Source: Eledone cirrhosa
Lineage: Eukaryota
Direction of reading: 5' to 3'
Assembly (NCBI GenBank): GCA_964016885.1
Contig: CAXHJY010001403.1
Span: 1-64,000, forward strand
DNA: 64,000 nucleotides
Position 1 is the first letter of the stretch. Each line of letters opens with the position of its first letter. This document shows positions 21,215 through 22,624 of this stretch, in pieces. The notes under the pieces were generated by a model. That model did not search any database. It worked only from the letters and a program-made list of their open reading frames with translations, and was not told the DNA's origin. The position numbers and the translations under genes are program-made.

Positions 21215-21653
21215 ATACCCTTCTGCCAGATGGTTGAACGTTCGAAAGTATATACTTTCCTCATGAAAATTAATGGCTGAGCAGCCTAATTTTCATATCG
21301 AGTGAGTTCAGTCGGCCAGGCGCACCGAAAACGATAAATGGAATAGAATAGAATGAAACGAAATTTCATTTCTCACGCTTAGCACGGCACTTACTTAAAT
21401 GTATGTATGTATGTATACGTACATACATATATGTATACAGACGTACAGTAGCATGCATATATATATATATATATATATATATATATATATATATATATAT
21501 ATATATATATATATATATATATATATATATATATATATATATATATATATATATATATATATATATATTAAGATAAGCAAAACAAGCAAAATTCAACCAA
21601 TTTTTTTAAATAAATTAAAAAATATAATTTAAATATTTACCTATTCTTTTGGA

Positions 21654-21731
21654 CCTTACCGATCGGTTTCGCTTTGTAAAACACCAGAAATCCAATGCAT
21701 TTCCAATGGAAAATCAAAGCTCATCTGAGAA
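21654..21731 (-). ncRNA. Type I hammerhead, family B (core mutated to CAGATGA)
   Basis: Reverse complement ttct-CAGATGA-gctttg...caaagc-GAAAC-CGATCG-GTA-agg. Confidence 0.65.
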
Positions 21732-22137
21732 GCATTTTCCTTTCCTTGGGCTAAAGTCCCAGGAACGATAAAATATATTGTTATCTGCCAGCTAGCACAG
21801 ATCCAAAAGGCCGAAAAATGACCTGTACGTGAACTACCCTAGGTGAAAGCGGGAAAAGCATAGACGTGTTGTCTATCTCGTTACTAAAAATAGCAGCTCA
21901 ATATAAACAACGGATTTGTTCTCAACATAACGGAGAATAATAATAGAAGAAGTTAATATGCCCGTGGGTACTAAGTACCCCTGGAAATATATAGGTTGTC
22001 TATGATTTAAGGTTGTTCTATGGTATTAATTTGACATACTAGAACTATAATATTAAGATAAGCAGAACAAGCAAAATTCAACCAATTTTTTAAAATAAAT
22101 TAAAAAATATAATTTAAATATTTACCTATTCTTTTGG

Positions 22138-22216
22138 CCCTTACCGATCGGTTTCGCTTTGTAAAACACCAGAAATCCAATGGATTTCCAATGGAAAATC
22201 AAAGCTCATCAGAGAA
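22138..22216 (-). ncRNA. Type I hammerhead, family B, intact core
   Basis: Reverse complement ttct-CTGATGA-gctttg...caaagc-GAAAC-CGATCG-GTA-aggg. Confidence 0.82.
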
Positions 22217-22624
22217 GCATTTTCCTTTCCTAGGGCTAAAGACCCAGGAACGATAAAATATATTGTCTTAATATTATAGTTCTGGTATGTCAAATTAATA
22301 CCATAGAACAACCTTAAATCATTTGATTTCTGGTGTTTTACAAAGCGAAACCGATCGGTAAGGCCCAAAAGAATAGGTAAATATTTAAATTATATTTTTT
22401 AATTTATTTTTAAAAATTGGTTGAATATGGTATAAATATGATATAAATGAAGTCGTAGACTAATATTCTATTGAGGAAACCGATTCTCAGCTCTGGAGTT
22501 TAAGAATAATTGTTTCTACTTTAGGCACCAGGCCAGCAAATTAACCAGTACATTACTGGCACTAAGAATAATGTAAACAAATTTGTTGAACGAAAATGTC
22601 CGAGGTTATTAAAATCGTAAAGGT

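Follow-up and report, generated by a model that had tools for sequence, protein, structure and literature searches.

Element B of an Eledone cirrhosa contig, a hammerhead-bearing repeat that is probably a non-autonomous Penelope-like element, and its diverged sister family C

Introduction

What is a non-coding pair of repeats, each with a hammerhead ribozyme and the two 485 nt apart, and by what route did it enter an (AT)n array? The locus in question, element B, lies in a 64,000-nt stretch of Eledone cirrhosa DNA (the window, meaning the whole stretch analysed), which is very AT-rich eukaryotic DNA crowded with (AT)n arrays and retroelement debris, resembles octopod genomes in its SINE-like repeats, and yielded no tRNA genes. 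A sequence-only reading had described B as a diverged sister of a second family in the window, C, placed there by a Penelope-like element (PLE) type of insertion, and had taken the equal period and common motifs of the two as pointing to selection on an RNA-level cis element.

PLE reverse transcriptases (RTs) are related to telomerase. PLE insertions are described as partial tandems in (TA)n targets, with an inverted and 5'-truncated copy alongside (PMC8557442), and animal retrozymes are presented as non-autonomous PLE derivatives by Li, Clavereau & Pollet 2026 (10.64898/2026.07.22.740005; hereafter Li 2026), with PMC4209133 cited among the literature on known relatives. Eight of nine Xenopus retrozyme dimers were uncleaved in vitro (Li 2026), and in the one PLE studied in vitro the RT start site is not homologous to the target and ribozyme cleavage is not needed (PMC11167929). 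How a PLE RT selects its RNA and primes on it, and what purpose the hammerhead serves, are standing questions (PMC8557442, PMC11167929).

Results and discussion

Anatomy and insertion site of element B

The locus resolves into the following parts.

21457–21568, no strand: (AT)56 microsatellite, the target, into which the 3' end of B runs; a 4-nt ATAT is common to it and the element's internal junction
21565–21781, minus strand: arm 1, the 3'-terminal pseudo-LTR-like repeat, 217 nt, 97% identical to arm 2 (7 differences)
21782–22049, minus strand: unique spacer, non-coding; the unit-start half aligns with C above chance, the other half does not
22050–22266, minus strand: arm 2, the 5' pseudo-LTR-like repeat, 217 nt, from repeat comparison
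22263–22322, plus strand: inverted copy piece 1, a copy of 22002–22061 that begins at the unit junction
22316–22426, plus strand: inverted copy piece 2, which copies 21591–21702 / 22076–22187 (the 3' half of the arm)
22427–22470, no strand: right flank, about 10 nt of filler and, from 22437, a truncated unrelated very high-copy repeat

B is a partial tandem of 1.45 units whose arms form pseudo-LTRs, and TRF did not report the locus as a tandem repeat. The direct repeats with hammerheads at a spacing of 485 nt were confirmed, with the cores on the minus strand and the same arrangement in C at a spacing of 483. GC content is 34%, and B holds no RT or endonuclease (EN) ORF, its longest wholly internal stop-free frame being 82 aa long and spanning the inversion junction. 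The inverted tail, earlier placed at 22266–22426 as a single rearranged stretch, is real but starts at 22263 and consists of two pieces, which meet at an AAATC-type microhomology with about 300 nt skipped; piece 2 is without the CUGAUGA half of the ribozyme and ends about 22 nt before the element's 3' end. An inverted 5'-truncated copy adjoining the 5' end was tested as a PLE mark and is present (22263–22426). Together with the partial tandem and the (TA)n target, with which the 3' ends share 4–5 nt of microhomology (ATAT in B, ATATA in C), it upholds the proposal of a PLE-type insertion.

B shows the pseudo-LTRs, inverted copy, hammerhead with palindromic helix III, (TA)n target, lack of an ORF and multiple copies that mark a non-autonomous PLE, as well as these marks of retrozymes: a type I hammerhead, no coding capacity and a GC content below 50%. 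Li 2026 reserves 'active' for two or more units in succession, each with a complete hammerhead, a class outside which B falls with 1.45 units and one mutated core. Our preferred reading, to which we give a probability of about 0.8, is that B is a dispersed copy of a multi-copy, non-coding, non-autonomous PLE, in the sense in which Li 2026 uses animal non-LTR retrozyme.

The three copies of one position within the locus (21653 / 22138 / 22364) carry three different letters (A, C, G), and the copies also show three different T/A run boundaries at 21606–21607; these differences may mean that one insertion drew on more than one RNA template, or may be fortuitous.

Hammerheads of B and C

Both families carry type I hammerhead cores on the minus strand, one per arm, and CCGATCGG occurs five times in the window, three times in B and twice in C.

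21645–21738, minus strand: hammerhead 1 of B (type I), with CAGAUGA instead of the CUGAUGA core at 21727–21721
21667–21658, minus strand: helix III of hammerhead 1, ACCGAUCGGU; predicted cut after 21657
22130–22223, minus strand: hammerhead 2 of B, with an intact CUGAUGA core at 22212–22206; predicted cut after 22142
22205–22156, minus strand: helix II of hammerhead 2, 50 nt, with a 6-bp base, an internal loop and a 12-bp distal stem
22152–22143, minus strand: palindromic helix III of hammerhead 2, 10 nt
39247–39964, minus strand: family C, the sister element, with arms at 39247–39481 and 39730–39964, spacing 483 and both ends in (AT)n

C has two intact hammerheads with a helix II of 53 nt. 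The helices II of the two families are built alike (a base of 6–7 bp, an internal loop and a distal stem of 11–12 bp) and show no sequence likeness. No Rfam match in the window reached gathering scores, and a limit of E 5 brought only chance-level ones to B and C; the long helix II of B and C is a hammerhead form that Rfam misses. A search of viral contigs with the hammerhead pattern gave no matches. Pairing of two helix III palindromes has a predicted dimer energy of −18.6 kcal/mol, and as circles the monomers show a modest folding advantage over 60 shuffles (z −2.5 and −2.3). Several features of the window copy count against the preferred reading: the minimum-energy fold of the B arm is not the hammerhead, the core of arm 1 is mutated, and helix I of hammerhead 2 is weak, with only 4 bp in this copy.

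A splice donor-like UAG/GUAAA lies on the minus strand at 22128–22121 in B and 39796–39789 in C, in each family at precisely +14 from the predicted cut, and no matching acceptor was found. PLEs are known to contain introns. An intron ending at CCUAG in the B spacer was rejected because the base at 21840 differs in every covering contig.

B and C are diverged sisters

The likeness of the two families had been summed up as the same architecture despite otherwise poor similarity, which understates it. The alignment score of the B and C arms was reached by none of 1000 shuffles, that of the monomers by none of 500 and the global score of the whole spacers by none of 1000, and monomer identity is 53–54% of columns under four scoring schemes. 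Measured from the predicted cut, collinear anchors stand in B and C at 14/14 (UAGGUAAA), 41/34, 216/208 (spacer motif), 245/236 (GCUGCU) and 471/469 (helix III), all within 9 nt of each other. The unit-start segment without the 25 nt next to the motif still aligns (2/1000 shuffles).

Were B and C unrelated, their likeness would have to come from the hammerhead core, AT-richness and chance, as the parts that do not align might suggest: the segments between motif and ribozyme (487, 221 and 111 of 1000 shuffles), the AGCAGC segment alone (70/1000) and the part downstream of the cut alone (63/2000). The collinear anchors, the spacer and unit-start scores and the same odd build of helix II in both families speak against such a coincidence, which we consider very improbable. 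On sequence comparison, B and C are diverged sisters from a common ancestor, as the earlier reading had it. Profiles built from both brought up no third member, whether in the window or among the 79 Hydra-clade PLE loci described below.

Two other proposed resemblances fared less well. The repeat ends, said to be alike, score no better on the same strand than 812 of 2000 shuffles; the best either-strand match of B's true 5' end to C (9/11) arises in 349 of 3000 random pairs and that of its internal arm end (10/11) in 51 of 3000, and the words lie at non-equivalent monomer positions, 376 in B and 331 in C. The repeat-end word as a shared promoter or stop was rejected as not above chance. The equal period had been offered as a sign of selection. 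When the 22–39 indels of B–C alignments are given random signs, a net difference of at most 2 nt has a P of 0.10–0.18, so common descent suffices to explain it.

A motif common to the two spacers

Four predicted or matched features bear on the question of a cis element.

21911–21938, minus strand: motif common to B and C, RNA sense GUUGAGAACAAA; by prediction it folds a small CUC/GAG hairpin, after which ACAAA is unpaired
39591–39602, minus strand: the motif in C, by sequence match
21868–21911, minus strand: predicted hairpin with GCUGCU (= AGCAGC), a prediction only; a GCUGCUG hairpin at the equivalent place in C
22064–22132, minus strand: predicted 3'-terminal hairpin of B, from UAGGUAAA to a point some 12 nt short of the UAUAU end; C is predicted to have the same shape

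The claim that the spacers share a motif stood: the local score of its sites (21911–21936 in B, 39588–39611 in C) was matched by 8 of 2000 dinucleotide shuffles, as against 109 of 500 for an opposite-strand control, a common 12-mer was reached by 10 of 1000 shuffles, and exact TTTGTTCTCAAC is found in the window only at 21915 and 39591. AGCAGC precedes the motif in both families, as noted earlier, by 17 nt in B and 16 nt in C. The spacer motif is inherited and is a candidate cis element. Its predicted order is the same in both families, a CUC/GAG hairpin, unpaired ACAAA and a GCUGCU hairpin, and the 3'-end hairpins of both are predicted to end 8–14 nt before the UAUAU end; shuffle support for the latter is uneven across the four arms (1, 36, 15 and 12 of 200 shuffles). 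Folding did not predict that AGAACAAA of the motif pairs over a distance with UUGUUCU close to the unit junction, a possibility that had been considered.

The motif could act in RNA, a reading to which we give somewhat less than an even chance. That it is instead a DNA-level promoter element, either one for Pol II inside the unit, like that of Penelope, or a PSE of the snRNA type, like that of newt satellite 2, seems to us doubtful, and about the same may be said of its being an unselected remnant. The near-constant spacing from AGCAGC fits a promoter, since one X4 contig (see below) also has AGCAGC about 16 nt before the motif with different intervening letters. So does the position of the motif in the unit's 5' part, where Penelope has its internal promoter (PMC2377424). 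PMC2220036 cites hammerhead satellites whose internal promoters are of the snRNA or Pol III type, the fly U6 PSEA contains TTCTCAAC (PMC4227766), and RNAalifold predicts no common structure for the B and C motif regions (−0.78 kcal/mol). The PSEA match, however, is 8 nt long, comes from a distant phylum and is oriented so as to fire antisense to the ribozyme; no description of a mollusc PSE was found in the literature; and the like-shaped hairpins are more stable on the ribozyme strand in both families (−15.8 versus −11.8 kcal/mol in B, −19.1 versus −17.6 in C), a weak sign for RNA.

Relatives of B and covariation

Contigs of 4 of 11 sequencing runs were compared with B, namely X1 (organism A), X4 (organism B), X6 (organism C) and X7 (organism D). 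Pieces matching B numbered 820 in X1 (30/30 bins), 26 in X4 (27 bins), 28 in X6 (24 bins) and 3 in X7 (7 bins), so that element B, with its 820 pieces in X1, is multi-copy and has relatives in at least three organisms; contig depth over B does not translate into a number of copies. X6 also has short pieces of high depth at 21591–21630 and 22084–22123, which are AT-rich matches inside other contigs and were set aside. The changes described here rest on 40 of 91 variants, 12 of 24 indels and 22 of 169 loose ends.

In helix III, 22145 C>T occurs together with 22150 G>A, accounting for a depth of 8149 out of about 10,000 in X1 (6 contigs) and for all of the X4 and X6 depth, and some records have the loop changed from AT to TA on both sides; the palindrome is kept in all. 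The stem III reported as identical in B and C is indeed so in the window copies, yet it is a minority form from which most relatives differ. In the distal part of helix II, one variant set (found at a single common depth in X1 and another in X4, and grouped by these equal depths) keeps four of the five pairs touched, one of them by a two-sided change. Another set keeps four helix II pairs and breaks two, which tells against the preferred reading; those records also carry gaps. Helix I is extended by three common X1 variants, and in the 3' hairpin pairing is kept in three of four common variants, while a minor variant at 22128, checked by hand, would break a further pair. Because the changes in helices III and II compensate on both sides, sequence comparison among the relatives demonstrates selection on the RNA structure of these two hammerhead helices. 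The earlier proposal of RNA-level selection holds to this extent, for the hammerhead helices, and not on the evidence of the equal period.

Loss of the motif among the relatives would have spoken against it and was not seen for the core: no variant falls inside TTTGTTCTCAAC among 40 of the 91 variants, although the G just upstream of the core, at 21912, is A in most of X1. The indels (12 of 24) are of 1–2 nt, and three rearranged joints were each seen in single contigs. In a low-depth contig of organism D, which leaves most of B uncovered, 58 of 58 letters of 22206–22263 are identical to B.

These comparisons also bear on whether B might be a satellite-type repeat, born from a PLE terminus, spread by local duplication or unequal crossing-over and no longer reverse-transcribed, its motifs passive remnants. 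Li 2026 proposes such a route for retrozyme arrays, and the window copy is old, since at many sites its letter is not the majority one and one of its cores is mutated. Single dispersed 1.45-mers with the 3' end in (TA)n in both families and an inverted 5' copy are hard to reconcile with this origin, as are the C arms, with a single difference in 235 (99.6% identical), and the compensatory changes, which need selection on folded RNA; we think it improbable.

Candidate autonomous partners

The non-autonomous PLE reading calls for a protein supplied from elsewhere, and the window itself holds remnants of two autonomous PLEs. One of them contains this ORF, which is not part of B:

36916–39193, minus strand: decayed autonomous Hydra-clade PLE ORF with RWK, DKT, a CxCX5C linker, a GIY-YIG-type YVG, and CxxC and CxH in the EN

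Its homologues include a Hydra vulgaris protein, and only (AT)28 separates it from C. The decayed element as a whole (36738–39195, minus strand) has in its 3' UTR a lone CTGATGA and an exact TTCTCAACATA at 36839–36849, the latter within a 24/30 antisense match to the motif region of B. This is a third exact match to TTCTCAACRTA where 0.08 would be expected, oriented the other way with respect to the sense strand; it is unexplained and is not counted as support. A Neptune-type PLE at 8699–12270 (plus strand) is frameshifted and has a long 3' UTR; at 8699–8874 its 3' end is repeated in inverted form. Its ORF at 8866–11130 shows DKG, CX4CxxC, a Pfam GIY-YIG and a weak RVT_1, and a hammerhead scan of 8699–12270 found none.

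For a wider comparison, 79 Hydra-clade loci came from alignment of the Hydra piece with 20 of 48 homologues (the best 80 of 446 confirmed stretches). A sense hammerhead is present in 54 of the 79, often with a 10-nt palindromic helix III, and three have one in antisense. Helix II is 10–29 nt long in all 54, as against 50 in B and 53 in C, and in 15 of the 54 a (TA)n begins 32–113 nt after the cut, compared with 88 in B and 75 in C. Helix III and the distance to the 3' end of B and C fit Hydra PLEs, then, and the length of helix II does not.

Direct sequence links were sought without success, which weighs against the preferred reading. Sixteen alignments of B or C to the UTRs of the window PLEs and to family A (see below) gave as their best two 4/500, not significant after 16 tests; both join the motif region of B to the Hydra copy, one of them in antisense. 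Profile searches of the 79 loci with B and C gave nothing significant (best E 0.17). The search for the motif in autonomous PLE sequences proposed earlier yielded no match in the 79 loci (RNA sense, at most one mismatch). Neither tttgttctc in the text of the PMC8557442 supplement, where line breaks can hide matches, nor the bipartite motif pattern in metagenome contigs gave a match. A 15/17 match of the spacer to 39176–39192 falls in probably coding sequence, and the spacer as a remnant of the Hydra ORF start was rejected, its frames being without the Hydra N-terminal motif.

We favour a Hydra-clade PLE as the partner of B, at slightly better than even odds, with Neptune next; as the comparison set consisted of Hydra-clade loci, the assignment is not exclusive.

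The nearness of C to the Hydra-clade ORF, across (AT)28 only, and the fact that no contig piece spans a whole B unit would also suit B and C as one-off deletion remnants of ORF-bearing PLEs, rather than families that amplify as 485-nt units. Yet the B spacer is found at high depth in X1 and in long pieces in X4, spacer-like letters continue beyond loose ends at 22263 in X4 and X7 (read by eye), and C is much younger than the broken ORF and does not align with its 3' UTR (56/500 shuffles), so this origin has little probability. On the same missing alignment, C as the pseudo-LTR of the adjacent Hydra ORF was rejected.

Known relatives and a proposed mechanism

B is most like the animal non-LTR retrozymes (PMC7229834; Li 2026), which are likewise non-coding and of low GC, carry a type I hammerhead once per unit, have units of 51–972 bp in Li 2026, a range that includes B, and are thought to be moved by PLEs. 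It differs in having 1.45 units instead of a tandem array of two or more, in its 485-nt unit, against 150–450 bp for the retrozymes of Cervera & de la Pena 2020 (PMC7229834), and in the helix II of 50–53 nt in B and C. With Hydra-clade EN+ PLEs, among them Hydra-1_Obim (Craig et al. 2021, PMC8557442), it shares the (TA)n target, a sense hammerhead near an AT-rich 3' end, a 4-bp palindromic helix III and the optional inverted 5' copy; unlike them it has no ORF, a much longer helix II, no UTR found to align and a motif absent from the 79 loci. The Chlamys non-autonomous elements such as MRC1 (PMC8557442) are also ORF-less PLE derivatives that form pseudo-LTRs, but they belong to green algae, mostly lack hammerheads and match a known autonomous family at the 3' end, a match not found for B. 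Poseidon PAc of Anolis (Frangieh et al. 2024, PMC11167929) is a PLE with a hammerhead and an AT-rich target whose RT starts at an internal stem-loop; it is autonomous, and its RT start is not homologous to the target, in contrast to the ATAT/ATATA microhomology of B and C.

We consider it probable that B is a PLE-type element copied in trans by a PLE RT/endonuclease and primed on nicked (TA)n by UAUA beside the 3' hairpin. The minus strand of B would be transcribed as RNA longer than one unit, in which two hammerheads could join by their 10-nt palindromic helices III and perhaps release a 485-nt monomer able to circularise. A PLE RT/GIY-YIG protein from elsewhere would nick (TA)n, and priming would take place on UAUA just 3' of the conserved terminal hairpin. 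Since the insertion crosses the ribozyme cut site twice, the RT would have copied an uncut multimer, a circle or a switched template, not a cut linear monomer. The cDNA end may then have folded back at the unit junction, and second-strand synthesis with one template skip would leave the inverted tail. Cleavage, circles, transcription and the partner of B are inferred throughout.

Beyond this lies a bolder possibility, which we hold unlikely: that B and C form a lineage of Hydra-dependent RNA circles of about 485 nt with a constrained unit length, the invariant parts of which would be the minimal signal for template choice and (TA)n priming by PLE RT. Those parts are the dimeric hammerhead with its long helix II, the 3' hairpin ending at the UAUA priming tail, and the mid-unit hairpin with ACAAA. 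If true, B and C would offer the smallest natural substrates for studying how a PLE picks its template and whether that template is circular. Two sisters at about 54% identity already leave no more than three or four short elements as candidates, each open to mutation on its own.

No description of families B or C or of the motif was found in the literature, with Repbase, Dfam and subscription journals outside the search, and the words hammerhead, ribozyme and retrozyme do not occur in the main text of PMC13282606. Repeats with hammerheads that descend from PLE termini are, as a class, already published, and B and C are therefore mainly a useful new example.

Neighbouring elements in the window

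A third hammerhead family of similar period, family A, not alignable with B or C, lies at 19610–21456 and 59163–59715. It has a compact Hydra-style hammerhead with cores at 59408 (plus strand) and 21208 (minus strand), and its units are separated by (AT)n, with start spacings of 476 and 452 and an inverted copy. Another type I hammerhead at 62466–62660 (minus strand, core 62649), with an (AT)n array some 130 nt away, probably represents the 3' end of one more PLE-type element, and a weaker hammerhead candidate lies at 51672 (minus strand). The window also contains a 48-nt minisatellite with 57 copies at 24289–26982 and two LINE-type RT ORFs (48214–50331, plus strand; 51698–54936, minus strand), one of which has a 99% partial copy at 16914–18310.
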